Shown here: one piece after another, positions 28,592 to 62,100 of the stretch
How the letters are laid out: every line of letters begins with the position of its first letter
How positions within the stretch are numbered: position 1 is the first letter of the stretch
DNA from: Methanobacteriota archaeon
GTDB taxonomy: Archaea > Thermoplasmatota > Thermoplasmata > SG8-5 > JAGLSY01
Assembly (NCBI GenBank): GCA_020697715.1
Contig: JAEHCO010000001.1
Span: 2,222 to 66,221 of the forward strand
DNA: 64,000 nt
Reading direction: 5' to 3'
Made by a program: the position numbers and the translations under genes
Notes under the pieces: generated by a model
Seen by the model: the letters and a program-made list of their open reading frames with translations, nothing else
Told to the model about the DNA's origin: nothing
Database searches by the model: none

Positions 28592-28648
28592 CCTGATTAT
28601 CTCTAAAAGGTAATCGGGCGGCGGGATAATAACATTTCCGTAATATTG

Positions 28649-32359: not shown

Positions 32360-32415
32360 CCGGCTTCCTCTGAATGGGAATCGGGTGGCAAGATAATAAC
32401 ATTTCCGTAATATTG

Positions 32416-35400: not shown

Positions 35401-35610
35401 AATGTAAGGGTTGCCAATACTACCATCTCCACCACCGAAAGCTCCTCCGGCAAGTGGGACAGGGCCGGGAACAATTTCCTCACCCTCTACATTCGCGGTC
35501 ATATCCAGCATCACAAAAAGTGAGCTGAGAACTAGCATAGAACTGATAATTAATGTGGCTGTTTTCTTCATGATATCATTTCCCCTATCAATGTGAGGGA
35601 AATGCACCAT
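32416..35610 (-). CDS. Giant surface protein, paralog of 28649-32359 (GLUG repeats, Ig-like, TSP3-like repeats, sequon stalk, TM anchor)
   Basis: 1064 aa; same architecture and near-identical C-terminal module; downstream flank ATAATAACATTTCCGTAATATTGTTAAG duplicated after both paralogs. Confidence 0.75.
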   Translation of the reverse strand: MVHFPHIDRGNDIMKKTATLIISSMLVLSSLFVMLDMTANVEGEEIVPGPVPLAGGAFGGGDGSIGNPYIVEDVLDLYYIRLDMNASYVLGNDIDATITNIWDSGAGFTPIGNTTSKFNGSLDGQGFEIINLIINRSTTDQVGLFGIISETASLTGIGLNNSDIDGQDTVGGLVARNMGTITDCYSTGYVTGIFDVGGLVGTNNGGTITYCYSTSSVNGISWTAGGFVGLNFVGNISNCYSTGTSTAVEYTGGFVGQNQADIINCYSTGDANGVDDYAGGFTGSNSGTITNCYSTGNAISFASGDYYGGFIGLNNNLVSNCYSTGNASGDDHVGGFIGLNGNPVSNCYSTGDASGANNVGGFIGLNGNTASNCYSTGDATSIDHYVGGFVGFNIGGTIINSYSTGIVNGDMYVGGFVGYIDNSQVTNCYSTGSATGIFDYVGGFAGFMTNVGTITNCYSTGSASGHMYIGGFVGWNEGPITASYSTGGATGTDSYVGGFVGINEVGSITACYSTGSSIGTIEYVGGFSGQNHGIIANCYSMGNAIGNDRVGGFTGYVWGIGTIKNCYSTGRAIGNLNSGGFAGYNNSGAIIDCFWDTDTSVTGIGIGAGGLTGATGKTTAEMKQQATFNPPWNFTNVWGIMETTSYPYLTPFSTIISTGQVTMMDTAIEDSNYMIVFDSALQPLPGSGMMQWGLETDATGWLSISSFGVISGTPLNVDVGTYYANITATDPVGHQGFYNYTFDVENMGPSITTPDVPSTNTGALYSVDYDSTDDPSTTWNLSGNVTGWLSIDNDGILSGTPNNAQAGIYNVEVTVDDGNGANDTRIFTLTVDLDTDNDGQPDTTDLDDDNDGTPDTSDDFPLDPTMVSDNDGDGIDDSVDDDDDNDNWDDAVEIAGGFDPLDDTDLPPDDDNDGIADFMDSDFLIVTEYNNQTIWNNETVPEYNNQTIWNNETVPEYHNQTIWNNETIPEYHNTTEWANNTIPEYHNTTVWNNGTADPSTQDTVIETPAWAWGAVIAAVVMGVLAVIGFTRGGSGGKPEGVEGSPEPDAEIEVEAEGQGEPDIS
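32657..32840 (-). repeat. In-frame 42-bp tandem repeat (about 4.4 copies, two identical) encoding 14-aa double-sequon units (PEYHNQTIWNNETV)
   Basis: Units start at 32657, 32699, 32741, 32783, 32825; 32741-32782 is identical to 32783-32824. Confidence 0.8.
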
Positions 35611-44915: not shown

Positions 44916-46472
44916 ATGGCTGAGACACTCACCATACTGAAAGGCGTCAGTATAAATGATGACGGCCAGGTATCCATGGATCTCAGAGAATGGAGCATTG
45001 AGGATATCGTATCCACCATGAGCAAGGTGTTCGATTCGCTGATCGCGGTCTCCGCTATCACCAAAGGTGATGAAAAGGCCTACCTGGAAGCGGATGATTC
45101 CGTAATGAGGATAAAAAATCAATTCAAGTCCCAATTTGTCTCACTTGGCATAGAGAAGCATATCCTGAAGGGAGGTTTGAGATCCCATCTGGACGTGGGA
45201 ATTGAAGGAGCGGATAAGGTATTGGGGGGAGGGATCCCCAAAGGCAATACCATATTATTGCTCGGACCACCTGGAAGTGAGAAATACTTATTCGCATACC
45301 AATATATAATCCAGGGACTGAGGGATGGAAGTGCATGTCTTATCAGCACATCGGTCACTGACCATAAAGGAATGAAGAACAATCTTTCAAAGTTGAAGAT
45401 CAAGCCATCCACATTCGAGGGCCAGGGATTATTGAAGACCATCGACTGGTATTCTTATAAGAAAGAAAATCTGGTGGGTGTGGAGGATGATGGAAATGTT
45501 TTCAGAGCGTCCAAGGACATAACCAATCTTGATATCGCGATAGGATCGGCTGTCAACAAGCTCTCCTTTGCCCCGACAAAAAGAGCGATGCTGGATATAA
45601 TATCACCAGCACTCAATATCTATGATCATTCCATGGTCATAGAGTTCGTTCAAAAGGAGAAGAACCTATTGAAGACTAAGGGCTTCACGACACTTCTGGT
45701 GGTTGAGAGCGGAGCTCATGATGAAAGAACATTGTCCACTCTTAAACATCTTTCAGACGGTGTGTTGATTATCGAGAAAGGCAGCAAAGGCCAGCTTACA
45801 TTCAAAGTAGAAGCTTTATCTGGCATGAAGTTCGACCAGAAGGCCCATCGCATCAAGGTGACCAAGAAAGGTCTGGAGATCATTTCCAATGTGAAGGATG
45901 AAAGCTCCATATTACAGGATCTGCAAGAAATACCAGCGATTGACAAAATAACAGCAGAAAAACTTATCGAGGCTGGCTTCACCAGCATGGAAAAATTGGA
46001 AAAGGCGAAGAAGTCGGAACTGGAAAGTGTTACAGGCATTGATGCGAATGTGTCCAATAAGATCTACGAATACATACATTCTGTAGAATATTCAAAGAAG
46101 ATAATAGAGAGAAAGAGCCAGAACTGGGTAAGGAAAGGATTGCAATTCATTGGTAAAAAAGAGATAGACAAGGGAATGCAAAGTTTCCAGAGGGCGATAG
46201 AGATCCACCCCAAGAACTCAAGTGCGTGGCTGGAGATGGCCAGGCTTCTTTACAATGAAGGTAGCAAAGATGATTCCAGAAAATGCTTTGACAAAGCTTT
46301 GGAGATCGATCCCACATTGGCAAAAGAATGGTTCGATAAGACCGAGGTACAGGAAGCTGGATGGGGCTGTCCCGTATGTGGGTTCTACATAAAGGAAGAA
46401 AATATCGAATGCCCTGAATGTGGTGTCATATTCAGTGTTGAAGAAAGAGAGAGCCAGAGGGATCAAATATGA
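44916..46472 (+). CDS. KaiC/RecA-like domain protein fused to helix-hairpin-helix, TPR and C-terminal zinc ribbon
   Basis: 518 aa; KaiC-like core (GIEGADKVLGGGIPKGNTILLLGPPGSEKY) with atypical P-loop lacking GK[ST]; HhH (IPAIDKITAEKLIEAGF…VTGIDANVSNKI); TPR-like pair; CPVCG…CPECG; start uncertain. Confidence 0.65.
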   Translation: MAETLTILKGVSINDDGQVSMDLREWSIEDIVSTMSKVFDSLIAVSAITKGDEKAYLEADDSVMRIKNQFKSQFVSLGIEKHILKGGLRSHLDVGIEGADKVLGGGIPKGNTILLLGPPGSEKYLFAYQYIIQGLRDGSACLISTSVTDHKGMKNNLSKLKIKPSTFEGQGLLKTIDWYSYKKENLVGVEDDGNVFRASKDITNLDIAIGSAVNKLSFAPTKRAMLDIISPALNIYDHSMVIEFVQKEKNLLKTKGFTTLLVVESGAHDERTLSTLKHLSDGVLIIEKGSKGQLTFKVEALSGMKFDQKAHRIKVTKKGLEIISNVKDESSILQDLQEIPAIDKITAEKLIEAGFTSMEKLEKAKKSELESVTGIDANVSNKIYEYIHSVEYSKKIIERKSQNWVRKGLQFIGKKEIDKGMQSFQRAIEIHPKNSSAWLEMARLLYNEGSKDDSRKCFDKALEIDPTLAKEWFDKTEVQEAGWGCPVCGFYIKEENIECPECGVIFSVEERESQRDQI

Positions 46473-47413
46473 GCTTGGGCAAGAAGGCCTTCGCCTCGGC
46501 TCCCTGTAGCTTGACATTATTGGGATATGACCTACACGATCATATTGGAACCTCTGTGGGGATCGCACTGGATAAGCGAATAAAATGTGAGACCATGATA
46601 TCGGAAAGCTTCATGGTCAATAACGATGTCTATGATGGGAACAAATATCCTTATGTTAGGGCGGCTCTGCTTCATGGATGGAGCGATATTGACACCCCTG
46701 TCTCATTCGAGATAGATGATATTACGATCCCAGATAATGTCAGTGGCTATGGACCTGGACATATCGCCTCCACCCTGGGTTCCCTGTCAATGATGAACGA
46801 CAATCTGATGTTCGAGGATATCTTATTGAAAGGCCATGAGATATTGAAGGAGAATGATAGCAAGATGGGGGTATTGGGACTATCCACCGCTATCAATGGA
46901 TATGGCACTGTATTATCCAATGAGATCGGCAAAGGCCACTTATGGAGTGTGGGAAAGGGGAAGAAAGCGAGGCACATCCATCATCTCGACATGCCGGATA
47001 TGACATTCGTTCTCGCATTTCAGAAGGGTGGATCTGGGAAAGAGGATTTCTCTGGAAAGTTCAATAATTTCGCCAGGCGTCAGAGTGGCTTCTTCAAAGA
47101 CATGCTGAAGGATTCGGCAAAGCTGGCTAAAAAAGGTCTTCAGGCTTTGGAGCGTGGGGATATGGAAGGGCTTGGCCAGGCCATGAACGAGACCGACAAG
47201 TTGACGAAGACGATGGGCATGTACACGCCAGAACTGAAAGTCGTGGCCGACCTGTGCAGGAGCCAGGCATTTGGAGCGAGGCTTTGCATATCGGAGAAAC
47301 ATGCGTATGTGGTGACTTTGACCAATGAGCCGGAAGAATTGGCCAGCAATATCCGGGAAAAGGGACATATCGCGATGGTCGCTGGCATATCCCGCGATGG
47401 ATTGCAGATATAA
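46469..47413 (+). CDS. GHMP-kinase-like protein (divergent; function unassigned)
   Basis: 314 aa; weak GHMP-type motifs (APCSLTLLGYDLHDH…, Gly/Ser-rich loop PGHIASTLGS, C-terminal GARLCISEKHAYVVTL); 4-nt overlap with upstream gene. Confidence 0.4.
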   Translation: MSLGKKAFASAPCSLTLLGYDLHDHIGTSVGIALDKRIKCETMISESFMVNNDVYDGNKYPYVRAALLHGWSDIDTPVSFEIDDITIPDNVSGYGPGHIASTLGSLSMMNDNLMFEDILLKGHEILKENDSKMGVLGLSTAINGYGTVLSNEIGKGHLWSVGKGKKARHIHHLDMPDMTFVLAFQKGGSGKEDFSGKFNNFARRQSGFFKDMLKDSAKLAKKGLQALERGDMEGLGQAMNETDKLTKTMGMYTPELKVVADLCRSQAFGARLCISEKHAYVVTLTNEPEELASNIREKGHIAMVAGISRDGLQI

Positions 47414-47502
47414 ACAAACACTCTAAAGGGTTGATAAATTTAGTCGTGTTAGTTTTTCTAATCGCTAGTAATACATTGAATTTAGGCGATTAGAAAGAAC
47501 CT

Positions 47503-47600
47503 AGTCGGTTGCCGTAAGCCCATCTATGAAAATTTAGCTTAACTCGAAGCCATATAAGCTTCGAGAAATCGGGTTTTATGGCCTTGGATGAGAACATTCA
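47503..47600. other. Conserved intergenic element, copy 1 (17-mer AGTCGGTTGCCGTAAGC plus 8-bp-stem hairpin), candidate sRNA or terminator
   Basis: 17-mer at 47503-47519 identical to 52015-52031; hairpin CTCGAAGC-CATATAA-GCTTCGAG at 47543-47565; shared downstream TTATGGCC; between convergent genes. Confidence 0.3.
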
Positions 47601-47624
47601 GGCACTTTTTGGGCATGATAGTTC

Positions 47625-49367
47625 TCACATTTCTTCAGGGGCCACAATACCCAGCGTGTTCAGCGCGTTCTGAAGTACCATCTTGGAGCATTTTACCAGA
47701 TTCAAACGCGCCTCCATGATATCCGCTTCCGCGCTGAGAACCGGGCAATCTCTGTAAAATTGATTGAAGAGGGATGCCAGCTCGTAGGTGTATGACGCCA
47801 CAAGGTGGGGTGTCCTGTCATCCGCGCATTTGATTATGAGTGAAGGGAACCTGGCCAGTGCTTTTATCAAGCTTATCTCGGACTCATGGATCAGAAGTCC
47901 GGGGTCGAAGTCATTCGGAGCATCCGTATTCCTCAGGATGCTGCTCGCTCTGGCATGGGAGTATTGAATGAAAGGCGCGCTATTTCCTTCAAAGTTCATG
48001 GCCTCCTCCCATTTGAAGGTCATTTGCTTTTCCGCCTGCACCCGGATGATATTGTAGCGTATGGCACCGACACCCACGGTCTCCGCTATGCCCAGCTTGA
48101 TCTCTTCAGGAAGCTCCGGTCTTTTCTTTTCAACTTCCGCCAGTGCCCTTGACACGGCCTCTTCGATGAGGTCATCCATGTAGACAACCTGGCCCTTGCG
48201 TGTGGACATCTTGCCCTCTGGCAAGGACACGAAGGCGTAGAATATGACCTCGACCTTTTTCTCATAATCCAGTACCTCATTGAGGGCTATGCTGACTGCC
48301 TCTGCTTTGAGTTTGTGATCCTCACCCAGCACATTGATCATATGGTCAAAATTATTATGTTTATCAATGTGGTAAGCTATGTCACGTGTTGTGTAAAGGG
48401 ACGTACCATCACTTCTTGTAAGGAACAGCTTGTTCTCCCTACCATGTATACCGAATTTCTCAAGATCCAGATACAGCGCGCCATCATCCTCGCCTGTCGA
48501 TTCACTGGCTCTCAGTTTTTCAACTACTTCCGCCACACTACCGTCCCTGACATATTTTGATTCCAGGTCGAATTTATCATAATGAATATCCAATCTCATC
48601 ATGGGAACCAACATCCCTTCCAAAATGTCCTCACAGTTCTTCTTCACCTTCTTGGATATGTCAGCCTCTCCATCTTCCTCATAAAGTGAAATGAGCTTAT
48701 TGATCTCATTATTGATATTGGGATCCTCAGCCATCAGCCTGTTAGCTTCCTGGTAGAATTTCACGAACTTGTGGTCCGCCCTGTCGCTCTCCACATCCAA
48801 TCCAGTGATATTCTCATGGCCCCAGGTGAGAATAACTAATTGTTTTCCCATGTCATCAACGTAAAAATGAACATCCAGATCATATCCTCTTTTTCTCAGG
48901 ATACGCGCCATCGTGTCCCCGATTATTGGATTGCGAGCCCGGCCTACATGAAGCGGGCCAGTTGGGTTCGCACTGGTATGTTCGAGGATAATCTTGGGAG
49001 CCTGATCCTCGAATTCGAAGGAACCATATCTATCCTTCATGCGAAATACCATTTCCATGGTTTTCCCGGCCAGTACTTTCCTATCAATGTAAAAATTAAC
49101 ATAAGGGCCCACATTCTCTATCTTTTCGAATAGAGGATTCGCGCCAATGCCAGCCACCAATTTCTCGGCCAGTTCCTGTGGTTTCATACCCAGTGGCCCA
49201 GCTAATGAGAAACAAACAAAGGCATAATCACTGTGCTGGTGTAATTTCAATGGTGGTAGGTAGAGCTCATTCCCACCCAGGGAATCCAAGGCCTTTCTCA
49301 TCTGGGCATTTGCTTCTTTATCGAATAAGGCCAGTGGGTTGAACTTTTCTAAATTATCGACATCCAT
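47625..49367 (-). CDS. argS: Arginine--tRNA ligase
   Basis: 580 aa; class I HIGH-type motif (ANPTGPLHVGRARN), ArgRS anticodon-binding C-terminal domain. Confidence 0.9.
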   Translation of the reverse strand: MDVDNLEKFNPLALFDKEANAQMRKALDSLGGNELYLPPLKLHQHSDYAFVCFSLAGPLGMKPQELAEKLVAGIGANPLFEKIENVGPYVNFYIDRKVLAGKTMEMVFRMKDRYGSFEFEDQAPKIILEHTSANPTGPLHVGRARNPIIGDTMARILRKRGYDLDVHFYVDDMGKQLVILTWGHENITGLDVESDRADHKFVKFYQEANRLMAEDPNINNEINKLISLYEEDGEADISKKVKKNCEDILEGMLVPMMRLDIHYDKFDLESKYVRDGSVAEVVEKLRASESTGEDDGALYLDLEKFGIHGRENKLFLTRSDGTSLYTTRDIAYHIDKHNNFDHMINVLGEDHKLKAEAVSIALNEVLDYEKKVEVIFYAFVSLPEGKMSTRKGQVVYMDDLIEEAVSRALAEVEKKRPELPEEIKLGIAETVGVGAIRYNIIRVQAEKQMTFKWEEAMNFEGNSAPFIQYSHARASSILRNTDAPNDFDPGLLIHESEISLIKALARFPSLIIKCADDRTPHLVASYTYELASLFNQFYRDCPVLSAEADIMEARLNLVKCSKMVLQNALNTLGIVAPEEM

Positions 49368-49369
49368 CT

Positions 49370-50593
49370 CTATCCCACCTTGTATCGGAGAATGGCCGCC
49401 AGACCATTGAAGGCCTTCATCAGCATTTCTCCTTCTTCCGAATCCATTGAGATCAATTCCACTGTCGTGCCATAGCTTTCGGCATTCACATATAGCCCTT
49501 CGATGACATCCGCTTCCTCATCGATGGCCACATCCCCCGAGCATTTTTTGCATTTTATCTGATTTGGATCATTGATCATCTCCTGACCAGATACGCCGCA
49601 ATCCTTACAGGTGTATTTCACCCGGTATCTGTCAACTCCCTCAGATACCATCAGGACATCCACTGCCCCGGCATTCAGGGTTTCATAGACCTCGACCTCG
49701 CCGTATGCGGTCAAGCCACCATCTGGCTTGCGAAGTTCGTCCATGAACCTTCGCATCAGCTCCTTTTCCTTGGATATGTCCATATCCTTCAGGGTCATTG
49801 TGGCATTTTCCAGAAGCTCTTTAAGGCCGTATTCGTCAGTATAGCCAGTATCAAATGTATTGAGGATCTTGCTATTCAATGCGTGATTGAGATAATTCTT
49901 ATCCGCGAAGAAATTCTTGGTGCTTCCCGGCCCACCAAGGATAATGCCCTTCAAGCCTTCGATCTCCAGAAATGCATCGTCTGCAATTCCAGCAACTTTC
50001 TTGTAATACTCATGGGCTGATATTTCAATTAATCTTTCAAATCTCTGAGCGGACTGGCCACCCTGTCGATGCTTGCCCATGATCCTTGATTGGATATTCT
50101 TCACCACTTGCAATCTCTTGCCGTTCAGGATACCGATGGTCGCCTCGCTCCTGTCGATCACTATGAGGCCCAGAGTTTCCTTTTCAATGAGCATGTCCTC
50201 CAGAGCGTCCAGGTAAAAATACGAATCACATCTGTAAAGGAATGTGGAGATCGGTTCCGGTGGCTCGATGATGAAACTTACTGCAACTGTCTGATCACCG
50301 CCAGCAGCCTTGTGCCCGACGAAGAAGGCCAGGCCATTTTCAGGCACTGCTTTATAATTCTTCAATCGGCCCATTATGGACTCGATGGCCCAGGACACGT
50401 TCTTCTTTGTTGTTCTGGACTTGATATTGGATGACTGGGAAGCCTCATTCCTGAGATATGATACGACATCGTGCACCATCTTCTTCTGCGGAATATGGAG
50501 TGATATCAGCTCGGTCGCTCTACCCTTGATGCTCTGGATCTCTCTGATCTGTCGCTTGAACTCGTATCTCGCTAATGCATCTGGCTTTGCCAT
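49370..50593 (-). CDS. prf1: Peptide chain release factor aRF1
   Basis: 407 aa; NIKS codon-recognition motif (SSNIKSRTTKK) and GGQ peptidyl-hydrolase motif (HRQGGQSAQRF); C-terminal zinc-ribbon-like CxxC pair. Confidence 0.9.
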   Translation of the reverse strand: MAKPDALARYEFKRQIREIQSIKGRATELISLHIPQKKMVHDVVSYLRNEASQSSNIKSRTTKKNVSWAIESIMGRLKNYKAVPENGLAFFVGHKAAGGDQTVAVSFIIEPPEPISTFLYRCDSYFYLDALEDMLIEKETLGLIVIDRSEATIGILNGKRLQVVKNIQSRIMGKHRQGGQSAQRFERLIEISAHEYYKKVAGIADDAFLEIEGLKGIILGGPGSTKNFFADKNYLNHALNSKILNTFDTGYTDEYGLKELLENATMTLKDMDISKEKELMRRFMDELRKPDGGLTAYGEVEVYETLNAGAVDVLMVSEGVDRYRVKYTCKDCGVSGQEMINDPNQIKCKKCSGDVAIDEEADVIEGLYVNAESYGTTVELISMDSEEGEMLMKAFNGLAAILRYKVG

Positions 50594-50726
50594 GTATTGT
50601 CCTCGGTATTATATCGGGCACAAGGTATCCACCTTTATATATTTTATATGTTTGAGTTTGAGCACTCCCGCACTCATTATCAATAGCAAGTATGAAATAT
50701 TGATATCTGATTGTTCATGCGATAAT

Positions 50727-51410
50727 ATGGATAATGTAGTTATCTCAATAGGCGGCTCGATACTGGTACCGGACGATCATGATACCTCTTACATCAAGGA
50801 ACTGGCAGACATGCTTCTGAGGATCAAGAAGGATGCGAAGCTGTTCATCGTCGTGGGCGGTGGTCGAATAGCCAGATATTATATTCGACTTGGTCGTGAC
50901 CTTGGAGCTGATGAGTCCTATCTGGATGATGTTGGAATTGCTGTTACCAGGCTCAATTCCCGAATGCTGATTACCGCACTTGGGGACAGTGCTTATCACG
51001 TGCCAGCCGAGAGCTTTGACGAGGCGATCATGGCCTCTAAAAATCATGATATCGTGATAATGGGTGGCACACATCCAGGACACACGACAGACGCAGTTTC
51101 CGCCATGCTGGGTGAGCGTGTTGGAGCTGTTCGATTGATCAATGCCACATCCGTTGACGGTGTTTATACATCCGATCCGAAGAAGGACCCGGATGCCAAG
51201 CGCCTGCCCACGGTCAGTTTCCCCGAGCTGGTGCGCATCTGCCTGCAAGTCGAAGGCGGAGCTGGACCCAATGTGGTCTTCGATCCATTGGGTGCGAAGA
51301 TAATTGCAAGATCTGGTATCGAGACACGGATCGTGCACGGTCGTGAGCTAGTGGAACTGGAGAAGGCCATACTTGGCAAGGATTTCCACGGTACCATTGT
51401 ATCAGAATGA
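50727..51410 (+). CDS. pyrH: UMP kinase (archaeal type)
   Basis: Start placed at ATG 50727 (MDNVVISIGGSIL…); amino-acid-kinase fold motifs IVVGGGRIAR, VIMGGTHPGHTTD. Confidence 0.85.
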   Translation: MDNVVISIGGSILVPDDHDTSYIKELADMLLRIKKDAKLFIVVGGGRIARYYIRLGRDLGADESYLDDVGIAVTRLNSRMLITALGDSAYHVPAESFDEAIMASKNHDIVIMGGTHPGHTTDAVSAMLGERVGAVRLINATSVDGVYTSDPKKDPDAKRLPTVSFPELVRICLQVEGGAGPNVVFDPLGAKIIARSGIETRIVHGRELVELEKAILGKDFHGTIVSE

Positions 51411-51424: not shown

Positions 51425-51982
51425 ATGGGAGATAAAATAAGGAGTTTCATCGCTGTCGATATAGGCCGCGTTCCTGAGCTCTTGAAATTCGTCAAGGCTT
51501 TGAGAGATATAGATTCAGATCTCAAGTTCGTAAAGCTGGATAACCTTCATATAACCTTGAAATTCTTGGGTGATATCGATGAGGAATTGGTTCCGGAGAT
51601 CGAGAGCTTTATGAGGAAGGCAGTTGAAGGACATGGACCTTTTGAAATGGATCTGAAAGGTACTGGTGTGTTTCCCAATTACAAAAGGATATCAGTGGTA
51701 TGGGCCGGCCTTGAGAAGACAGAGGTCTTGGCCGATATCGCAGATAAGCTGAACAACAACTTGACCATGATGGGGTTCCGTCAGGAAAGAAGGGGATTCT
51801 CACCTCATATCACGATCGCGAGAGTGGGGAACACTCTGGATACGATCGGCTTGCCGGAAACCGTCAAAAAGTTCGAGAACTTGGAGTTCACCACACTTAA
51901 GGTCGAGAGGATCATTTTGAAGAAATCCGAGCTCACACCTAAGGGTCCGATCTACTCGGATGTTGTAACTGTTGAGCTATAA
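51425..51982 (+). CDS. thpR: RNA 2',3'-cyclic phosphodiesterase (2H phosphoesterase, LigT/ThpR)
   Basis: 185 aa; two H-x-T-x motifs (HITLKFLG and HITIARV) at the expected spacing. Confidence 0.8.
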   Translation: MGDKIRSFIAVDIGRVPELLKFVKALRDIDSDLKFVKLDNLHITLKFLGDIDEELVPEIESFMRKAVEGHGPFEMDLKGTGVFPNYKRISVVWAGLEKTEVLADIADKLNNNLTMMGFRQERRGFSPHITIARVGNTLDTIGLPETVKKFENLEFTTLKVERIILKKSELTPKGPIYSDVVTVEL

Positions 51983-52014: not shown

Positions 52015-52110
52015 AGTCGGTTGCCGTAAGCTCATCATAAAACATCAACTGGATGCGGCGAACCAAACGCCGCACGTTCGAGCTTATGGCCCTAATGATC
52101 CACTAATAGA
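52015..52110. other. Conserved intergenic element, copy 2 (17-mer AGTCGGTTGCCGTAAGC plus 7-bp-stem hairpin)
   Basis: 17-mer at 52015-52031; hairpin TGCGGCG-AACCAAA-CGCCGCA at 52054-52074; then CGTTCGAGCTTATGGCC as in copy 1; between convergent genes. Confidence 0.3.
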
Positions 52111-52122
52111 TTCTCAGTGTTT

Positions 52123-52527
52123 TCATTTCTTATATTTGTGGATCAACATCTTGTCCCAGTCCACATCATTCTCAAAGCCCTTGCTTTTCAGATATCGACT
52201 CATGGACTCGGTGACCCTGGCCACTTCCAATGACTTGGCTGAATGGTAATGTCCGTAGATGTACATCTCCAGGTCATCTGATTCTTCCTGGATCGGGAAT
52301 ATCATTCTCATGCGTCCCTGGCGATTGTAACCTTCTGGCTTCTTGTTCTTTTCCAGATCGATGAGGTTCTCCTTTATCATCATATTGACCACCTCTTCCT
52401 CTTCGGGTGTCTGGTCCGTGTCCTCCAGGAACTTGAGGTACATCTCTGAGAATATAGGTGTGAAGTCCTTGTATTGCACACCCTTGTCAAATTTTATGTG
52501 TCCGCTTCTTACTTTCATATTGATCAC
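52123..52527 (-). CDS. Hypothetical small acidic protein
   Basis: 134 aa ORF downstream of pilin gene; no recognisable family. Confidence 0.4.
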   Translation of the reverse strand: MINMKVRSGHIKFDKGVQYKDFTPIFSEMYLKFLEDTDQTPEEEEVVNMMIKENLIDLEKNKKPEGYNRQGRMRMIFPIQEESDDLEMYIYGHYHSAKSLEVARVTESMSRYLKSKGFENDVDWDKMLIHKYKK

Positions 52528-52724: not shown

Positions 52725-53231
52725 TTACATATTCAGTAAGCTGCCGCCGCTCATCTGGATCTCTTGTCCGTCTAGGTCGACTATTGTAATTTCGTATTCA
52801 CCAGCCTGTGCGTTTGCCCAGGTCAATGTTACGTAGTCTCCACTGTTTATAAGAGAGTTGGCTCCGATATCAGTTGCTACTGCAGTGATATCCTGTCCAG
52901 CGCCAGATTTTGCAACAGAAATTGCTGTTGGCGGATTGGCATCAAACGATAATACATAACTAGTGGAATTAACACCAGCTATTGTTATTGTTATGTCTGT
53001 CCATTCGATATCTGTGCTGAACGATCCGAACTTCATTGTTGCGGTTGTTGAAGAGTCCTTATCGAGCTCTGACCAGTTTCCTGTTGCAGCTACACTGCCT
53101 CCACCGCCAAAGTCCATGACCATGACGTAAAGCACAGCAGCCAAAACCACGGTGATAGCGACCATCAAAATGGTAGCAATAACCGGAGACACTGCGTCGT
53201 CCTTCTTTCTTATATTCCATGTGTTTTTCAT
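52725..53231 (-). CDS. Archaeal type IV pilin-like protein (class III signal peptide)
   Basis: 168 aa; N-terminus MKNTWNIRKKDDAVSPVIATILMVAITVVLAAVLYV matches the prepilin-peptidase-processed motif; beta-rich Thr/Ser-rich C-terminal domain. Confidence 0.65.
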   Translation of the reverse strand: MKNTWNIRKKDDAVSPVIATILMVAITVVLAAVLYVMVMDFGGGGSVAATGNWSELDKDSSTTATMKFGSFSTDIEWTDITITIAGVNSTSYVLSFDANPPTAISVAKSGAGQDITAVATDIGANSLINSGDYVTLTWANAQAGEYEITIVDLDGQEIQMSGGSLLNM

Positions 53232-53367: not shown

Positions 53368-54120
53368 TCATATGTTCTTTGCGGATATACCCTTATCATC
53401 TATGTTGCATGATAAGATCTTAGTTTTCTCTGGGTGATTCCTCACCTTCCTTATCAGCAGATTCCTTGTGAAAGTGGAGCCCTCTCTGAGCCTCTCCAGT
53501 TCTATTGTGATATCCACTATATCCTGGACACCACTTTCCACGCGATTGTCAAAAACCCCTTTCAGCATCGTGACGAGGGCTATGCCATTATTTAGTTGAG
53601 TATGAGCCTTGATGGTCCTTATGGCGGAAAGCACATCAGCCTCATCATAATACTCTAGGAAGAAATCCAGAGAATCCAATACGATCCTAAATGGTGGTTT
53701 GAGCTTCGATATACCATATGTGAGCGTGGTCAGGAAATTGACATCCATGCTTTGTTCAGCCTGGGCGGCATTGAATTGCTTGATATCTCGCATTTTCAAT
53801 CCTTCCTGGCGATACTTGCTAACTTCCAGGTTCTTGGCCAGAACCTTCTCATAATACATCTTGCCGATATTCACGACCCTGATATCCTGCTTCCACCCGA
53901 ATTCACCCATGGCGGTCTTAACAGCCTCATCACTTTCAGTGGTGGAGAAATAGGTAACGTTCTCATTTCCTATTCCAGCTGCTGCAAACTGCTTGGCAAA
54001 TAGCTCGACACCGGTTCCGGGTATACCGGTGATCAATATCGTACATCCTTTCGGAACACCATCCATCAGGGATTTATCCAGCTCCTTCACACCTATGCTG
54101 GTAGTTTCGATCAAACTCAT
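53368..54120 (-). CDS. KaiC/RecA-like ATPase domain protein (third of triad)
   Basis: 250 aa; P-loop-like GIPGTGVELF (non-canonical) and KaiC-type fold; 4-nt overlap with upstream gene. Confidence 0.7.
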   Translation of the reverse strand: MSLIETTSIGVKELDKSLMDGVPKGCTILITGIPGTGVELFAKQFAAAGIGNENVTYFSTTESDEAVKTAMGEFGWKQDIRVVNIGKMYYEKVLAKNLEVSKYRQEGLKMRDIKQFNAAQAEQSMDVNFLTTLTYGISKLKPPFRIVLDSLDFFLEYYDEADVLSAIRTIKAHTQLNNGIALVTMLKGVFDNRVESGVQDIVDITIELERLREGSTFTRNLLIRKVRNHPEKTKILSCNIDDKGISAKNI

Positions 54121-54689
54121 TCACCCCCTATGGTTATCGTGGTATCACATACCAACTTCATCATATTGGATATCTCTTCAGTGCTGAACTCTTCCATTGT
54201 GAAGACCATGGAATAGGCATCCTTGGCTCTCAGATTGTTTATGAATATATGCAAGAATTCGGACAGGATCTTCATATTATTGTGAATACCCAGGGCATTT
54301 ATGGCATCTAAAACAATGACATTGTTCTTGCCATCTGATTTCCTTATGAGGTATTCCACCTTCAGCATGATGTTCTCCAGCATGGTGGGGCTTTCCACAT
54401 AGAGCACGTTCTTGTATTTCTTGGCCCCTCCGACCATGATATGGGAAACACAGTCCACGAAGTAAATATTGGTAAGATCGATCTCCAGGATCTTCAAGAC
54501 ATCGATTATTGAATGTGATGGAATAGCCACCGTGATGTAGATGACATTCAAATTCTTCTTATTGGCGAAGATATCCACTATTCCCCTTATGGCATCGAAA
54601 TAACTATCACTGACTATCTTCAGGTTTATAGCGGATGAAGGTGGGAGCTCATGAAGCTCATCTGCCAGATCGCCAGGTGATTTGATCAT
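54117..54689 (-). CDS. KaiC/RecA-like fold protein lacking recognisable Walker A (second of triad)
   Basis: 190 aa; matches C-terminal part of KaiC-like fold (NVIVLDAINALG) without P-loop; 4-nt overlaps on both sides. Confidence 0.5.
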   Translation of the reverse strand: MIKSPGDLADELHELPPSSAINLKIVSDSYFDAIRGIVDIFANKKNLNVIYITVAIPSHSIIDVLKILEIDLTNIYFVDCVSHIMVGGAKKYKNVLYVESPTMLENIMLKVEYLIRKSDGKNNVIVLDAINALGIHNNMKILSEFLHIFINNLRAKDAYSMVFTMEEFSTEEISNMMKLVCDTTITIGGE

Positions 54690-55438
54690 AGACCACCACC
54701 GCCCTTGAGCAATGGAACAAGTAATACGCCCGCGGGTGTCAGATCCAGAACATATTTCGCTCTGGAATGTACTGTTCCTCTCATTTTCACCACTTGCAAT
54801 GTCCTCAGAAGGTCTCCCCTCCGCTCATAATTCCCCATAAGGACGATACCATCCGCGATGGCTTCCTCCACCCCGTAGAGCGAGTACCTGTCGGCAGATG
54901 GTGATATTTCGGATATCAGAAGACTGGTGCAACCCCTGGTAGAAAGAGCTTTTCCTATCTTCAATATGAATTCCCTTATCTTCTCCTCTGTTTTCAATCT
55001 GTAGCAAACGGAGGTTATGGAATCTATGACCAATCTTTTGACAGAAAGCTCATCCACGAGGTTACCCAGTGCACGAACCAGAGTGTCGACATCCTCCAGA
55101 CTGAACTCCACATTTGTCAAACCCAATCTCTCATAGATGACTGGCATATCGACGAATGCCAGTTTTCCTGTTTTTATCAGGGATTCCTCAAAGAAATCAT
55201 ATGGGATGACATTCGTGGTAAGTTTCTCAGATGATTCTGTAACTGAAACAAAAAGTGAATTCTCATCGGCCAGAGCCCCATGCACTAAAAATTCAAGGGA
55301 CAGTGTGGTCTTTCCAGTACCGCAACTGCCTGTGAACAAAATGGTATTTCCTCTGGGTATTCCTCCATTTAGAATATTATCCAAACCATCTATTCCTGTA
55401 ACGCAACGTTCTCTCTCAATGATATTTTCTGAGGCCAT
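54686..55438 (-). CDS. KaiC/RecA-like ATPase (first of triad; canonical Walker A)
   Basis: 250 aa; GIDGLDNILNGGIPRGNTILFTGSCGTGKTTL Walker A, Walker B (RLVIDSI), KaiC-type C-terminus. Confidence 0.75.
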   Translation of the reverse strand: MASENIIERERCVTGIDGLDNILNGGIPRGNTILFTGSCGTGKTTLSLEFLVHGALADENSLFVSVTESSEKLTTNVIPYDFFEESLIKTGKLAFVDMPVIYERLGLTNVEFSLEDVDTLVRALGNLVDELSVKRLVIDSITSVCYRLKTEEKIREFILKIGKALSTRGCTSLLISEISPSADRYSLYGVEEAIADGIVLMGNYERRGDLLRTLQVVKMRGTVHSRAKYVLDLTPAGVLLVPLLKGGGGL

Positions 55439-55591: not shown

Positions 55592-58500
55592 TTGAGCGAT
55601 TCCACACTTTACCTATGCCCATTTTGTGGCGCCTTCATAAACGAGGAGGCCGAGGTTTGTCCCAATTGCAGCAAACCATTGGAAGAGGAGGTGGAAGGTG
55701 GATTCGAGAAAGAGCTGGATGATCTTATAGATGAAGATCTCAATGCCATGTCAGGAAGTGAATCCTGTCCCAGATGTGGAAAGCAGCTGGAAGAAGGATC
55801 ATTAGAATGCCTGGATTGCAATATGAAGATCGAGGATGGACTGGAACCCGCATCTGAAGGAGAAGAGGAAGGAGTGGCTCTATTCCTTTGTTCAGGATGT
55901 GGGGCTTTTATCAATTCGAATTCCAATGAATGCCCCAAATGTGGTATTTCACTTGATGATGAGGCTGAAGAAGAACATGATTTTGTAGAATATGATAATG
56001 AATTGCTGGATCTCCTTGTTGAGAATGAGCCAGATGAAGAAGATGAGCTTATCCTGGAGTTGGATAGCATAGATGATCCAGAAGATCTGATATCGGTCAT
56101 TGACAAGATGCCGGATATTGAAGATGAAGAGCTATTCGATGATGAACCAGATATCGTACTTGATCTTGATCTGGCAGATGACGATCCGGAAGGCGATCTT
56201 CTTCACATGAACATTGATGATGAAATAGAGAAGACCAGGATAGTGGAATCCATTAGCGAAAGGGTAGCCGGAGAAGTGGCTATCGAAAGTGATAGTGGAG
56301 ATGAGATCATGCTCTGTGGAGAGTGTGGAGCATTTGTCTCCCAATCTTCAAAGGAATGTAATGTTTGTGGAAATGACATAAGACCTGGCAGCCATCTGGC
56401 TATTGAAAAAGATGAGATCCCCTCAGAGAATGATGGCGAAAATACAGAGACCGCCCTGAGGTCCATACTTGGGATATTGGATGATGTCATACTTGATCCG
56501 GATCCAATGGCAGATCATGAGGATGATATTGGCATATGCCAGAAATGTGGAGCTTTCATACCTCATGGCGAGAGTGCGTGTCCCGTATGTCATGCGGACA
56601 AAAAGAGTCTTCCAGATATCATATACACGGAACTGCCTATAGATGATCATGATTCTATGTCCATTTGCGGGGATTGTGGAGCTTTTGTCAAATCCGATTC
56701 AGATACATGTAATGTTTGTGGAGCCAAGGTCGATGCCGATATGCTAAGATCCATAGAGCCAGATGATGTCTTGGAGATGGGGATGGATGCGGATGACCCA
56801 ATGGATATTCTGAAAAAAGCACTGGGTGTGCTGGAATTACGAGATACGACACCAGAGGAAAGGATCGGTGGAGAACTGGATCTATGTCCGGATTGTGGTG
56901 CTTTCGTCTCAGCTAATGCCAAATCATGCTCCATTTGTGGCAGCGATCTGATCCAGGGCACGGATATAAGCCTGGATGATGGCATAGTCATGGATCTGGA
57001 TGATGGATCGGTCATTCTTTCAGACAGTGTTTGTCCCAATTGTGGCTCCAAGTTCGGGGTCGGGGCAGGAGATTGTGAGGTTTGTGGCTTCACATTCCTC
57101 GGTGATGAAAGTGATCATGACGAGAAGGAAATGTCCTATGAAGACAGGGTGGACATATCGGATATCATAGAATTCGAGGTTCCAGAATTGACAAAGGAAA
57201 GCGCTATCGATCACCTCAATGAAATGGAAGATGATATGGATGATCTAATTCTGGATGAAGTAAAGCCTGAATCATCTGCCGAGGTTAAGAGTGGGGAACT
57301 ATCCAATGAAGAAAAGCTGGCCAGGATAGAAAAGGCCTATGAAGAAGGGCAACTTAGCAAGGCCAATTACATAATCAACAAGGCCAAGTTCTACGGACTT
57401 GTTCAGGAAATGAATGAGATAGAAGATGACCTGGATGAGCTTTTGATAGATATTGATGAGACGATGGCCGAGACCGTGGAAGTGCCGACCGAAGAGGATG
57501 AAATAGAAAGTCTGGAGCTTGGAGATCTTCATCTGAATATCGATCCAGATGCTCAGGACGACGAGGATACCCAGCCAGATGTGGAAATGGAATATGATGA
57601 TCTGTCCCTTTCAGAAGATGACATCAAAGAAGGCATCCATGACGGAAAATATGATGATATCATCGAATTCGATGATCAGGATCTGGATCTAACCCAGGAT
57701 GATACTTATCAGGAAGATCTGGATGAGCATATTGAAACTTATGAGGAAGAGGATGAGACCTCGAAAGAGGATGAAACCTCGGATGAGGATGTCATATACG
57801 AAGAGGTCGAGGTCTATGTGGACGAAGATGGCCAGGAAATAGAATATGAAGAGGTCGAGGTAAATGAGGATGACATCGAAGAGTATGAGGAGGATGTCGA
57901 TGATCCTGAAGGAACCGATTTAGATGATCATGACCCCGAGGAAACATATTTCGAAGAGGAAGACGAGATCCATGTACCCTTCAGATCACATGCCATGGCG
58001 GAGACCACTGGAGGACCGCAATATCTCAATCATTCCGGATGGGAATATGGTGTCATCGCATCACTTCTTACATCCCTCTTCTATGTCGCGCTTTCCTCAT
58101 ACATACCCATCAATCCCATATCATTGGCCATAATATTTGGCGTGATACTTATCTTCGCCTTCATAATGATGGTCACATCAAGATCCATATTCATGAAAGG
58201 CGATCTGTACCGTGGTTCCGTGTTCATGATAGGCGGAGTGATAATTTCTTTCATCCTGCTCCATTGGTTCGCGGATATCATGATCGATGATCCGATGGTG
58301 GACAAAATGCTACTGTCGATAGGAATAATGATGATCGGTATAGGAATAATCTGGATAAGGGGCAAGATCCGATATATCCATCTCTGGTTATCCGGCACCA
58401 TATTCCTATTTCTGTTCTCCATAGGAGAGCTTTATTATTTCGAGCAATGGGCCTATTCCCCCATCCAGCCACCAGGAGCGATAGTGGCTGGGATCGGGAT

Positions 58501-59152
58501 ATCTCTGATCGTGGCCAGTTCCATACTGCTGGCCTATGAGAGAAGTCTACACACTTCGATAGAGACGGAGATCGTTCGAGGAGATATGGACTATCTCAAT
58601 AAGAATTACAAGAAGGCATTGCATTCCTATGATAGGGCGCTTGAGAAAAGCACCCTGAAGACCGAATCCGCATTGAAGGCAGATGATACCAGGGAATACG
58701 ATGTCCCATGGTACAGTAAAGGTGCGACCCTGATATTGATGGGTAATTTGAAAGAAGGAATTGAATGTCTGGATATGGCTCTATCCATAAATCCCAATAA
58801 CGAGGTCGCATGGGTGAGCAAGGGAAATGCCTATTCAAAGCTCGGGGACATGAGCAGTGCTTTGGAATCATATAACAATGCATTGATCGCGAACCCCAGA
58901 TACATAATAGCCTGGAACAATAGAGGTAATGCATTTGCCAGGAAGGAGAATTATATCGAAGCCCTGAAGAACTATAACAGGGCGATCAAGCTGGATCCAG
59001 ATTATAAGGACGCGTGGATCAATAAGGGCTATGTCCTGATGAAGATGGGAAAGCAGGATGAGGCGCTCAAATGTGTGTCGATGATAGGGGAGAAAAAGAT
59101 GGGACAGCATGGAGCAGCCAGTACCAATGGCAGTACTAAGGCCTCTGCCTGA
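55592..59152 (+). CDS. Giant membrane protein: eight N-terminal CxxC-N(9-11)-CxxC zinc ribbons, acidic linker, about six TM helices, C-terminal TPR repeats
   Basis: 1186 aa, TTG start; ribbons such as CPFCGAFINEEAEVCPNCSKP, CSGCGAFINSNSNECPKCGIS, CGDCGAFVKSDSDTCNVCGAK; hydrophobic block (…VIASLLTSLFYVALSSY…); four or more 34-aa TPR units. Confidence 0.7.
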   Translation: MSDSTLYLCPFCGAFINEEAEVCPNCSKPLEEEVEGGFEKELDDLIDEDLNAMSGSESCPRCGKQLEEGSLECLDCNMKIEDGLEPASEGEEEGVALFLCSGCGAFINSNSNECPKCGISLDDEAEEEHDFVEYDNELLDLLVENEPDEEDELILELDSIDDPEDLISVIDKMPDIEDEELFDDEPDIVLDLDLADDDPEGDLLHMNIDDEIEKTRIVESISERVAGEVAIESDSGDEIMLCGECGAFVSQSSKECNVCGNDIRPGSHLAIEKDEIPSENDGENTETALRSILGILDDVILDPDPMADHEDDIGICQKCGAFIPHGESACPVCHADKKSLPDIIYTELPIDDHDSMSICGDCGAFVKSDSDTCNVCGAKVDADMLRSIEPDDVLEMGMDADDPMDILKKALGVLELRDTTPEERIGGELDLCPDCGAFVSANAKSCSICGSDLIQGTDISLDDGIVMDLDDGSVILSDSVCPNCGSKFGVGAGDCEVCGFTFLGDESDHDEKEMSYEDRVDISDIIEFEVPELTKESAIDHLNEMEDDMDDLILDEVKPESSAEVKSGELSNEEKLARIEKAYEEGQLSKANYIINKAKFYGLVQEMNEIEDDLDELLIDIDETMAETVEVPTEEDEIESLELGDLHLNIDPDAQDDEDTQPDVEMEYDDLSLSEDDIKEGIHDGKYDDIIEFDDQDLDLTQDDTYQEDLDEHIETYEEEDETSKEDETSDEDVIYEEVEVYVDEDGQEIEYEEVEVNEDDIEEYEEDVDDPEGTDLDDHDPEETYFEEEDEIHVPFRSHAMAETTGGPQYLNHSGWEYGVIASLLTSLFYVALSSYIPINPISLAIIFGVILIFAFIMMVTSRSIFMKGDLYRGSVFMIGGVIISFILLHWFADIMIDDPMVDKMLLSIGIMMIGIGIIWIRGKIRYIHLWLSGTIFLFLFSIGELYYFEQWAYSPIQPPGAIVAGIGISLIVASSILLAYERSLHTSIETEIVRGDMDYLNKNYKKALHSYDRALEKSTLKTESALKADDTREYDVPWYSKGATLILMGNLKEGIECLDMALSINPNNEVAWVSKGNAYSKLGDMSSALESYNNALIANPRYIIAWNNRGNAFARKENYIEALKNYNRAIKLDPDYKDAWINKGYVLMKMGKQDEALKCVSMIGEKKMGQHGAASTNGSTKASA

Positions 59153-62100
59153 CCTGCATGATGCATATTCCGATCATGGTTGCCAGGATCAATGAGAAGA
59201 TATTACTGAACTCGTCAATAATGATTATATCGACCGATGCCACATCACTATCCGGCAGAAGCATGTAGCCACTGGAAGTAGTGTAATTCAATAGTGCCCA
59301 ATTATCAACAGGGCCAGCAAGTGGCGTCGCATTGACTGTCACATTGATGAATATCGCGTATGAGCCGGGCGCGATATTTGTGAAGTACCAGCTAATATCC
59401 TGACCCAGTATTGTCGAAGGAGCTGGAACCGCGCTGTCGAAGATAATTCCAGAGGGTAATGTGTCATTTATCCAGACATTGCCCGCATTGGTCGAGCCAG
59501 TATTATTGTAGAAGATGGTGTACATGATGGTGTCATTGGCATAGGCGGTTGTGACATTGGCGGTCTTCTGGATATCTATAACAGGCCGCTGGCAGGTGAC
59601 ATTGGCCCATGAGGTCTCGGTTCCCAGAGAGTATGTCAAAGTGGCGGAATTGGATAATAATTCCAGATCGGTCGCATTGGCATTCACCTGCACCTCGATG
59701 GTTATGAGATTCGTACTCTGTCTGGGAATCTGGGTGAAGGTCCAGCCAAGATCCTGGCCAACTATCGTCACGGGCAATGGATTGGCGACCACATAATCGA
59801 CATTCGCTGGAAGTACATCATCTATCTGAACATTCCAGGCCTTTCCCAAACCTGTATTATTGTACCATATCTCGTAGGTTATCAGATCGCCTGGTTGGGC
59901 AGTGGTCACATTGGCTGTTTTGGATATGGACATATTGGGGAGTTTAGGTGCCAGTGGATCAATGGGGTCAGAAAGCTCTATTTCTTCTAGCCCAGTCGAT
60001 CGGGATGACCTTGCGGCCTCGGCATTGTGCCTGATACTATTGGTCTCATCCTCCATACCCAGCCAGTCTGACATTTCGATGGCGATGGAGATATCAGATT
60101 GCCTGGATATTCCAAGAAGTCCAAGGGGCACGCCTACCTCAATCCGGGATAGATCATTGGCCCCGGATGCTTTGCCGAGATATGTCCATGGAGTGCTCGC
60201 GGACATCTCCTCATATGAGTATATCTCGCTGGATAGTATCTTATTGTATTTGCCAGTTATAAGGATTAAATGGTCAGCTCCAAGCTGACCATTTAAATAA
60301 TGGCCTGTTTCGATATCATCATCCGCGTCTATGTATATCAACAGATGATCCATACCTTTTCTCTCAATGTGCCTCACAGGGCCGATATAACGGCTTATGA
60401 ACCTGCCAGAATAATTCGCATCATAGCTCTGGGGGATGGTGGTATTGAGCCAATTGTCAACACCTCCAGCATCGTGATCCACTACACCGTCGCCATCACG
60501 ATCCCCATTAGAATTCGCATCATCGACACCGTCATTATTAAAATCATGAGCATATGAGCCATCAGGGCCATCCAGCACATCCGGGACACCATCATTGTCC
60601 GAGTCCAAATTAGGAGAAGTCTGAGTGACATTTTGAGCCGATGGTGTTGATCTGATCCTCAGCACTGGTATTGCGGATCCTCCCATGGCCACCCCACCCA
60701 CGGATGTGTAGATGTTCAGCTCATCATCCATATTCATGCGGTAATCCCTGATATCCACATTCCTGTTCAGGAACTTCAGCTTTGCAGGATCCTTTCCTGG
60801 AACTACCTGATCATTGGCCGCATCGATATTTGGAGGTGTCGATTGCCAGTCTCCAAATGCTCCATCTATCGTCGTACCAGATGGTTGGCCATAGTGTTTG
60901 AGAGATGGTGCACTTACTATCATGTCCAAGTTGACGGTGTCGATCATGCCCACATTCAAAGGCATGAGGCCGATGGTCTGGCCATTCTCTGTCCCGGTCA
61001 ATGTGGATGAAAGAATAAGTTGAGTGATTTCAGACGGCGATAGTGGCATGGGGTCGAATAATTCCAAATGAAGGACCTGGCCGTCCACCTGCATCGAGGA
61101 TAGGCCAACCACCTCGTCAATGACAGGTTCTATCAGGCCATTATCATTCATATCCTTGTATAATGTGAATTGTGAAAGAATATCCGGACTGGATGTTCCC
61201 AATATACGGAAGTCGAGTGAGTCGATCTCCACCTCATCCTCATAGCATACGAGTTCGAAGGAGCAAGAGAGAACATCATCTCTTGCCAGTATATCATTCG
61301 AAGGGTCAGTGATCGACCTTATAGACAGGGATGCGGTATTGGGGATCATTATGCCATCGGAAGTGTCTGTATTTCCTTCGGAATCACTTGTCATGACAAG
61401 GACTGATGGTGACTGGTCTGCCAGATCGCTCATGGCCGTTCTCAGTTCGATCTTATCTCCACTCACCTTACTGGATACCGAGGATATATACATGAACCCA
61501 CTCCAGTCATCAGGATCATGATCATTATCGAATCTCAATAGTTCAGATGCTTCCACATGATTATCATAACCATGAACATCTATCAGGACATCGGCGCCCA
61601 GATTGTCGATGGAATAGCCAGTGCGATTATTCCCATCTGCATCTAGGAAGATATAGATGGAATCCACACCACTGCCATTCGCACTACCACCTTCCATCAT
61701 GGTCCCGTCAACTTGTAGGAAAATGTCAAGATATGGATGATCCAATGAAAATCTAGTATCTACCAGATCTATATCAGGGTTTATGACATCCGATACTTCA
61801 TCGGCATAGGATGTGAACTTATTCCAGTCACTGAAAGCTCCGTCTATCGAGATATCTCGTGTGTCACCATTATTCATATTCTCGGTGAATATCGGCACAT
61901 AGAGTATCAAAGATATCACAATGACAATGGATAAAAAGCCGATCTTCCACCTACGTGCTTTTTGACGATTCCTTCTCAATATAGCCATATCCTGCTTTCT
62001 CTCAACCAAGGAATCACCATTTATGAAACCATCGCCATTAACTATGCCAGAGCCGTTGACCAGGCCATTCGTTAACCCATTGGTCAAGCCATTGGTACGA

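Follow-up and report, generated by a model that had tools for sequence, protein, structure and literature searches.

REPINs and BIMEs are doublets of REP sequences that form hairpins and are mobilised by RAYT transposases in bacteria, where REPINs reach tens to hundreds of copies per genome. The cognate RAYT is a single-copy gene that REPINs usually flank. Elsewhere among mobile DNAs, single-strand transposition by HUH/Y1 enzymes, as in the IS200/IS605 elements, is recognised by insertion 3' of a short motif and by the lack of inverted terminal repeats and of target duplication. REPINs are described as having conserved inverted arms and a 5' tail that is single-stranded; their spacer varies but is limited in length and in the ability to form a hairpin, and compensatory changes occur (PMC3116915). 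REPs have termini that supply stop codons, a position between convergent ORFs and frequent G-T pairs (PMC3733652). According to the literature, RAYTs are absent from Archaea, REPINs have not been reported in archaea, and the IS200-type TnpA is the one Y1 subclass known in Archaea.

In this work we describe the anatomy, conserved structure, restricted distribution, empty syntenic sites and stop-codon junctions of a family of hairpin elements found in two related Thermoplasmata archaea. The sequence analysed, referred to here as the window, is a single stretch of 64 kb, and the closest relatives of its arginyl-tRNA synthetase (ArgRS) are annotated as Thermoplasmata or Thermoplasmatota. A sequence-only reading of the window had pointed to a repeated 17-mer, AGTCGGTTGCCGTAAGC, and we found exactly the two sites that it gave, both on the + strand (47503-47519 and 52015-52031), with no third site in the window at up to three mismatches; none of 100 dinucleotide-preserving shuffles of the window reached two matches. 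Each 17-mer opens a longer element, the boundaries of which were taken from a four-way alignment and from the comparison of filled with empty sites. The four copies aligned are copies A and B of the window and copies L005 and L006 of SF.bin11, a related Thermoplasmata MAG. The features of the two window copies and of their neighbours are as follows (in the gene-strand flank the slash marks the junction):

46469-47413, + strand: 314-aa ORF, neighbour of copy A
47503-47627, + strand: copy A, full length, 125 nt, with a 5' tail, a long hairpin (domain 1), a second hairpin (domain 2) and the 3' terminus GATAGTTCTCA
47503-47510, + strand: 5' tail of copy A, AGTCGGTT, invariant in all four copies and outside the main stem
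47511-47521, + strand: 5' strand of the closing stem (P2) of copy A, GCCGTAAGCCC
47522-47542, + strand: 21-nt internal loop of copy A, beginning AUC
47543-47565, + strand: inner hairpin (P3) of copy A, CTCGAAGC-CATATAA-GCTTCGAG
47571-47582, + strand: 3' strand of the closing stem (P2) of copy A, GGGTTTTATGGC, which includes the TTATGGC(C) singled out by the sequence-only reading
47590-47626, + strand: domain 2 hairpin of copy A, GAGAAC-ATT-CAGGCAC-TTTTT-GGGCATG-ATA-GTTCTC
47625-47627, - strand: TGA stop codon of ArgRS, within the last bases of the element; gene-strand flank ATGTGA/GAAC
47625-49367, - strand: ArgRS, neighbour of copy A
51425-51982, + strand: LigT-type phosphoesterase, neighbour of copy B
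52015-52116, + strand: copy B, 102 nt, with domain 1 and the 3' terminus AATAGATTCTCA, lacking the domain 2 hairpin
52023-52033, + strand: 5' strand of the closing stem of copy B, GCCGTAAGCTC
52034-52054, + strand: 21-nt internal loop of copy B, ATCATAAAACATCAACTGGAT
52055-52073, + strand: inner hairpin of copy B, GCGGCG-AACCAAA-CGCCGC, with no sequence relation to that of copy A
52080-52090, + strand: 3' strand of the closing stem of copy B, GAGCTTATGGC
52123-52527, - strand: 134-aa ORF, neighbour of copy B

Both copies are thus flanked by convergent genes, as had been claimed, and all four genes are also called in a related annotated genome. A stable hairpin does follow each 17-mer, although it starts 23 nt after it and not at the 25-35 nt first given. 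The C-containing element that was said to be shared by the two sites is TTATGGCC, at 47576-47583 and 52084-52091, and it proved to be the 3' strand of an 11-bp stem, the partner of which is formed by bases 9-19, that is, GCCGTAAGC of the 17-mer and the next two bases, YC. The 5' block common to copies A and B extends over 22-26 nt (AGTCGGTTGCCGTAAGCYCATC) and is followed by AT-rich similarity; GCTTATGGCC is also common to the two copies, and a common 3' terminus, (G/A)ATAG(A)TTCTCA, closes them at 47627 and 52116. All four copies end in the terminus (G/A)AUAG(A)UUC(UC)A. The domain 2 hairpin is common to copy A, L005 and L006, its shared form in these three full-length copies being GAAC-WUU-CAGG...CCUG-AUA-GUUC. 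The invariant 5' tail could pair weakly with the GGAU that lies just 3' of the stem.

The same architecture of stem, 21-nt loop and hairpin is present in all four copies, and they constitute a real, structured and unannotated element family. In the 11-bp stem GCCGUAAGCYC pairs with GRGCUUAUGGC; pairing holds in 97.7% of the alignment cells of the four sequences, and sliding the partner strand by 1-3 columns lowers this to 25-48%. Of the 11 pairs, eight are the same in every copy, a G-U has been kept throughout, and one shows covariation, being C-G in two copies and U-A in two. The covariation statistics for the stem are weak, and with four sequences the shuffle control is not significant. The lengths of the outer modules are fixed throughout (tail of 8 nt, stem of 11 bp, internal loop of exactly 21 nt), and the inner hairpin has 6-9 bp and the 3' loop 4-6 nt. 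Sequence and length are conserved very differently along the element: the arms are identical across the four copies whereas the spacers differ by 30-60%, and the 21-nt loop shares only its first three bases, AUC. The inner hairpin is built from three unrelated sequences (CUCGAAGC, CGCAAAGUU and GCGGCG), all of them perfectly paired, and stems of the observed length were reached in 108 (copy A), 155, 11 and 449 of 20000 composition shuffles of the respective spacers. In three of the four copies folding is more favourable for the + strand than for the - strand (-40.3 vs -34.7, -49.2 vs -39.7 and -54.9 vs -43.1 kcal/mol); the z-scores range from -3.3 to -8.5. Inspection of the four copies revealed no conserved ORF or peptide on either strand.

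These features bear on the proposal of the sequence-only reading that the repeat belongs to a small-RNA family. The elements would then be small non-coding RNA genes specific to this lineage, present as two paralogues in each genome and transcribed on the + strand from near AGUCGG. Their tail and stem would serve as a seed or as the binding site of a protein, and the loop would make each paralogue specific in its own way. The better folding of the + strand speaks for this reading, as do the invariant G-U of the stem, which becomes a C-A mismatch on the other strand, the loop of constant length and variable sequence, the missing ORF, the two copies per genome, a number typical of sRNA paralogues, and a 22-nt block without a single difference between two genomes that have diverged to 80% identity in ArgRS. 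On the other side, we found no TATA- or BRE-like element at a consistent upstream distance (a promoter search that is uninformative here, as even the tRNA gene has no recognisable TATA box), no conserved terminating T-run, no match in Rfam and, within the window, no complementarity of the element to possible trans targets beyond that expected by chance.

Could the elements be guide RNAs of a known class? C/D box sRNAs carry a C box (RUGAUGA) and a D box (CUGA) arranged as a K-turn, with 12-nt guides; in H/ACA RNAs the ACA lies directly 3' of the lower stem, a pseudouridylation pocket is present and the upper stem holds a K-turn or K-loop. Like the archaeal guide sRNAs, the element is small, structured and multi-copy, with a constant scaffold, a variable single-stranded segment and an order of hairpin, hinge, hairpin and 'ACA'. 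However, it has neither C/D boxes nor a K-turn or K-loop, only a degenerate GGAUGAG and AUGAUAG, and the best C/D matches in Rfam were SNORD93 with 20.2 bits (gathering threshold 60) and snoMe28S-Gm1083 with 14.7 bits (gathering threshold 48). With regard to H/ACA RNAs, the internal loop of domain 2 measures only 3x3 nt, there are no GA/AG tandem pairs and no Rfam match, and the 'ACA' of the element consists of the A of the neighbouring gene's stop codon and the CA of its last codon. Since the C-termini of the host proteins are native (see below), the 'ACA' after the second hairpin belongs to host codons. The C/D and H/ACA features suggested as a check are therefore absent. In Rfam 15 at gathering threshold nothing was found at either element, the only match in the window being the tRNA gene at 7258-7369, and permissive scans returned nothing but sub-threshold chance matches at the two sites, so that the elements belong to no known family there; nor did ARAGORN predict a tRNA or tmRNA at them. 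This tRNA gene (+ strand) has a 38-nt intron in the anticodon loop; Rfam scores it with 49.4 bits and the bacterial mode of ARAGORN missed it. It provides the clearest indication of the archaeal nature of the window.

Is the family more widespread? We scanned one genome per species, in 185,579 species, for the 17-mer and obtained 38 matches, 36 of which are scattered bacterial chance matches that lack the rest of the element. The other two show the full architecture and lie on two contigs of the MAG 'Methanobacteriota archaeon SF.bin11' (GCA_020696385.1). The 17-mer, for which a wider search had been proposed, is thus not unique to the window, and there are two exact sites in the SF.bin11 MAG and two in the 64-kb window. 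A metagenome scan that required both halves of the stem gave five matches, all of them due to chance and located in coding repeats, and the 15 matches of a viral scan were likewise only chance. A covariance model (R1) built from the four copies scores them with 83-95 bits (copy A 90.2 bits, E=2e-19; copy B 82.7 bits, E=1e-17), and run with filters off it detected no more diverged copies in the window or in eight related loci. A 13-mer of the element has no occurrence in the literature. In the sequence searched the family is confined to two related genomes, at low copy number, with two copies each as far as seen; the ArgRS proteins of these genomes share 80% identity, and the 22-nt block is unchanged between them.

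That the repeat arose by chance, or is left over from a local duplication, and has neither function nor mobility would fit the finding of just two window copies, separated by 4.5 kb. Against this stand the shuffles described above, the two further copies of the same architecture on other contigs of another genome, the conservation of a structure built from unrelated hairpin sequences, and the fact that the 4.5 kb between the copies are syntenic housekeeping DNA in a relative without the repeats. We regard a chance origin of the repeat as effectively refuted, and the whole explanation as having a negligible probability; the repeat represents a genuine family of structured elements. A mobile element bounded by the two 17-mers was also rejected, the intervening 4.5 kb containing ArgRS, aRF1, an amino-acid kinase and LigT in the same order of genes as in the repeat-free relative. 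Two smaller candidates were dismissed: a 13-nt match at 6680 lies within a 1224-aa gene and is due to chance, and the domain 2 motif does not form an independent repeat, its extra 9-mer matches falling in coding sequence. Regarding the kinase, the mechanically called ORF (50376-51410, + strand, 344 aa) overlaps aRF1 by ~220 nt. Judging from the length of its orthologues in relatives, 214-235 aa, the gene probably starts near 50700.

Comparison with SF.bin11 revealed what the two window sites look like when the element is missing. That genome is syntenic with the window over the KaiC-like, 314-aa ORF, ArgRS, aRF1, kinase, LigT, 131-aa ORF and pilin genes, and it has no element at either window position. 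Its spacer between the 314-aa ORF and ArgRS has ~130 nt of different sequence, with a z of about 0 against the element, which rules out that it is a diverged homologue. Since it shows weak similarity (z = 3.7) to the corresponding spacer of a more distant relative, this spacer is probably the ancestral one; copy A replaces those ~130 nt and is not a simple insertion. At the second site the LigT/131-aa spacer measures 34 nt in SF.bin11 compared with 140 nt in the window. The converse situation is found for L006, which in SF.bin11 lies between genes for a GNAT acetyltransferase and an ACT-domain protein: two outgroups (GCA_030594255.1 and GCA_054043565.1) have a conserved 94-97-nt spacer and no element at this site, and the SF.bin11 locus consists of the outgroup-type spacer and ~145 extra nt set against the GNAT stop codon. 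The four copies therefore occupy four different loci, three of them between convergent genes and the fourth between tandem genes. Copy A and L006 are the closest pair (81% identity, with the same inner hairpin), yet they reside at unrelated loci. At every syntenic site compared, the related genomes lack the element. Each of the four sites has different flanking genes, none of which codes for a transposase, an integrase or a nuclease, and the element is thus accompanied by no protein gene of its own; among the window ORFs scanned we found no Y1/HUH or other transposase.

Several other features of these loci deserve mention. The KaiC-like ATPase genes of the window form a cluster beside an archaeal type IV pilin gene (44916-46472, 53368-54120, 54686-55438 and 52725-53231), and one of them is a fusion with HhH and TPR domains, an arrangement kept in SF.bin11. 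Just upstream of copy A, at 47449-47497 (+ strand), there is a T5 run and, after it, an 11-bp hairpin, TTTCTAATCGC...GCGATTAGAAA. The two are kept in SF.bin11 (L039 11929-11996), where the element is absent, and probably form the terminator or another 3' structure for the 314-aa gene; the SF.bin11 version has a tandem duplication of the 3' arm of the hairpin, AGGCGATTAGAAA. This upstream hairpin (TCTAAT...ATTAGA) was considered as a part of the element and ruled out, because it belongs to the loci themselves and is also found at sites without the element. Finally, the spacers downstream of ArgRS in two relatives (L039 11800-11925 and L041 4175-4327) share G-rich motifs, namely CGTGGGT repeated ~24 nt apart and GGTGGGGGC(C)GGA; judging from these motifs, the G-rich ancestral spacer may be a different conserved non-coding element that was lost from the window genome.

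The empty sites also bear on the idea, raised by the sequence-only reading, of a bidirectional terminator or insulator, to which an mRNA-stabilising hairpin can be added; in each of these cases the element would act in cis on the 3' ends of the flanking convergent genes. The convergent setting of three of the four copies agrees with such a role, domain 2 starts at the base after the stop codon, copy A and L005 have runs of U5/U6 in the loop of domain 2, and bacterial REPs act in this way once inserted. But the same gene pairs do without the element in related genomes, where the LigT/131-aa spacer of SF.bin11 has no more than its 34 nt, and no conserved T-run follows either hairpin: L006 has only a T3, and copy B has none and lacks domain 2 altogether. 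Moreover, the element folds less well on the strand of the abutting gene, the 314-aa gene upstream of copy A has its own conserved hairpin and T5 run, and the presence of just two copies per genome argues against a general terminator. A terminator scan returned 1 site where 3.6 were expected. We consider a cis-acting 3'-end element improbable.

The position of the elements relative to the neighbouring stop codons is unusual. Read on the gene strand, the four junctions are:

Copy A, ArgRS: ATG TGA/GAAC
L006, GNAT acetyltransferase: CTG TGA/GAAC
L005, 143-aa ORF: CTG TGA/AC
Copy B, 134-aa ORF: CAC TGA/GAAT, 7 nt beyond the real stop

Each of the three full-length copies has the TGA stop of the convergent gene within its final bases, TGTGA being present in all three of them and TGA at all four junctions. 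The C-termini encoded by these host genes are native: ArgRS ends in ...PEEM in all relatives, with TAA, TAG or TGA as the stop, and GNAT ends in ...QLD(L/I). The SF.bin11 orthologue of ArgRS has a TAA stop and no element. TGTGA thus extends two bases into three unrelated genes (ArgRS, the GNAT acetyltransferase and the 143-aa ORF), which is hard to explain without insertion directed at TGTGA, or at least at TGA. The TGA could equally be part of the element itself. Stop-codon read-through and a SECIS-like role were ruled out, since the hairpin is missing from copy B and no conservation is seen among the extension peptides. The 11-mer ATGATAGTTCC, which matches the 3' terminus of the element, is present in two unrelated membrane-protein ORFs (L006 7201-7211 and L005 7090-7100); we judged it to be a coding coincidence (Met-Ile-Val-Pro).

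The reading of the elements as small-RNA genes leaves three of these results unexplained, namely that copy A and L006, despite 81% identity and conserved synteny, sit at unrelated loci, that relatives have empty sites, and that three copies end exactly on TGTGA. The structured family proposed by the sequence-only reading is real, and a small-RNA family remains the main live rival, which we view as possible though unlikely, given the differing loci, the empty sites and the ends on stop codons.

We tentatively favour, at somewhat less than an even chance, a low-copy, non-autonomous and structure-dependent mobile element, represented by four copies, that would resemble the REPINs or the miniature elements of the IS200/IS605 group. 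This reading is preferred because terminal inverted repeats and target duplication are missing, insertion appears to occur 3' of a short motif, several features are REPIN-like and the relatives show insertion polymorphism. Beyond the features described above, we infer mobility, a single-stranded intermediate, the target motif and the type of enzyme. The element is a non-coding hairpin repeat of ~100-125 nt composed of the tail AGTCGGTT, the arms GCCGTAAGCYC and GRGCTTATGGC and the 3' terminus GATAGTTCTCA, and the spacer inside the stem is constrained in length and hairpin formation but free in sequence. We propose that it is, or until recently was, mobile. It would be copied or moved as a folded single strand by a mobilising enzyme encoded elsewhere in the genome, and would insert into the opposite strand directly 3' of a TGA, or of TGTGA in the case of the full-length copies, which would account for its end on the convergent gene's stop codon. 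Transcription is compatible with mobility in a hairpin element of this kind, and so the mobile and small-RNA readings are not exclusive; the element may also be transcribed and then fold as a stable RNA. Several points speak against mobility: the very low copy number (two in the SF.bin11 MAG and two in the window), the lack of a transposase among the window ORFs scanned, the reported absence of RAYTs from archaea, the dissimilar end hairpins, the replacement of ancestral spacer at the ArgRS locus, a target motif drawn from three or four junctions, and the conservation of the 22-nt block, which fits a functional RNA at least as well.

How closely does the element match the known systems? Like the REPINs and BIMEs, it is ~100 nt long and extragenic, often between convergent ORFs, and has conserved inverted arms in a long hairpin and no coding capacity. 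It also shares with them the 5' tail that is single-stranded, the frequent G-T pairs, the compensatory changes and a spacer that varies in sequence within limits of length and hairpin formation, and three of the four copies overlap the TGA of the neighbouring gene. In contrast to REPINs, it is seen in two copies per genome instead of tens to hundreds, and its arms are not clear palindromes of ~14 bp, the 5' arm containing only a 3-bp palindrome (CGG TTG CCG). REPs are tagged with GTAG or CGTC, whereas the tag of the four copies is of the form NTAG, reading CTAG, CAG, GTAG and ATAG, with GTAG in one of them only. The extra second hairpin module and the archaeal host are further differences. The element does not qualify as a REPIN: its copy number is too low, its arms are not GTAG-tagged REP palindromes and no RAYT is known in Archaea.

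The comparison with the miniature elements of IS200/IS605 (PATE-type MITEs, moved by the Y1 HUH transposase TnpA) is similarly mixed. Terminal inverted repeats are missing in both: the ends of our element, TAGTCGG... and ...GATAGTTCTCA, are not inverted copies of each other, and no target duplication flanks it. As in those elements, a hairpin lies ~10 nt from one end; the element may also be inserted directly 3' of a short motif (TGTGA/TGA), judging from four junctions. The ends of IS elements are usually alike, whereas the two end hairpins described here are not, the domain 2 hairpin (CAGGNCC/GGNCCTG) having no counterpart at the other end; TnpA recognises specific hairpins, whereas the sequence of the inner hairpin is free; the target motif lies on the strand with the poorer folding of the element; and in the sequence searched no autonomous partner with matching ends was identified. 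An integron attC site was dismissed on the absence of the core sites RYYYAAC/GTTRRRY. A more specific version of the mobile reading strikes us as rather unlikely. It would make the element the first replicator of a REPIN-like kind to be described from Archaea, kept at very low copy number in a Thermoplasmata lineage, which would move as a folded single strand, home to the base after a TGA (TGTGA) and so dock on stop codons; because RAYTs are unknown in Archaea, an IS200-type Y1 or an unrecognised enzyme would have to move it.

What would either origin imply? An archaeal element of REPIN-like design would mean that structure-dependent non-autonomous elements arose or spread beyond bacteria, and it would point to a mobilising enzyme yet to be identified. 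If it is an sRNA, it represents a new archaeal RNA family with an unusually well-defined scaffold. An unannotated structured element overlaps the stop codon of an essential gene, ArgRS, and the element could serve as an insertion marker at the strain or lineage level. The finding is currently a narrow one, comprising two genomes and four copies.

Repeats of other kinds are also present in the window. At 26090-35610 (- strand) there are three adjacent large paralogous ORFs (833, 1236 and 1064 aa) with diverged 78-84-nt periodic repeats; since blocks of 150-300 nt recur at a spacing of ~3.8 kb, these ORFs look like tandemly duplicated, repeat-rich proteins of the surface type. Further downstream, a 1605-aa ORF (59136-63953, - strand) contains 30-nt (10-aa) tandem repeats at 62077-62324 and adjoins an ORF of 1186 aa (55592-59152, + strand).
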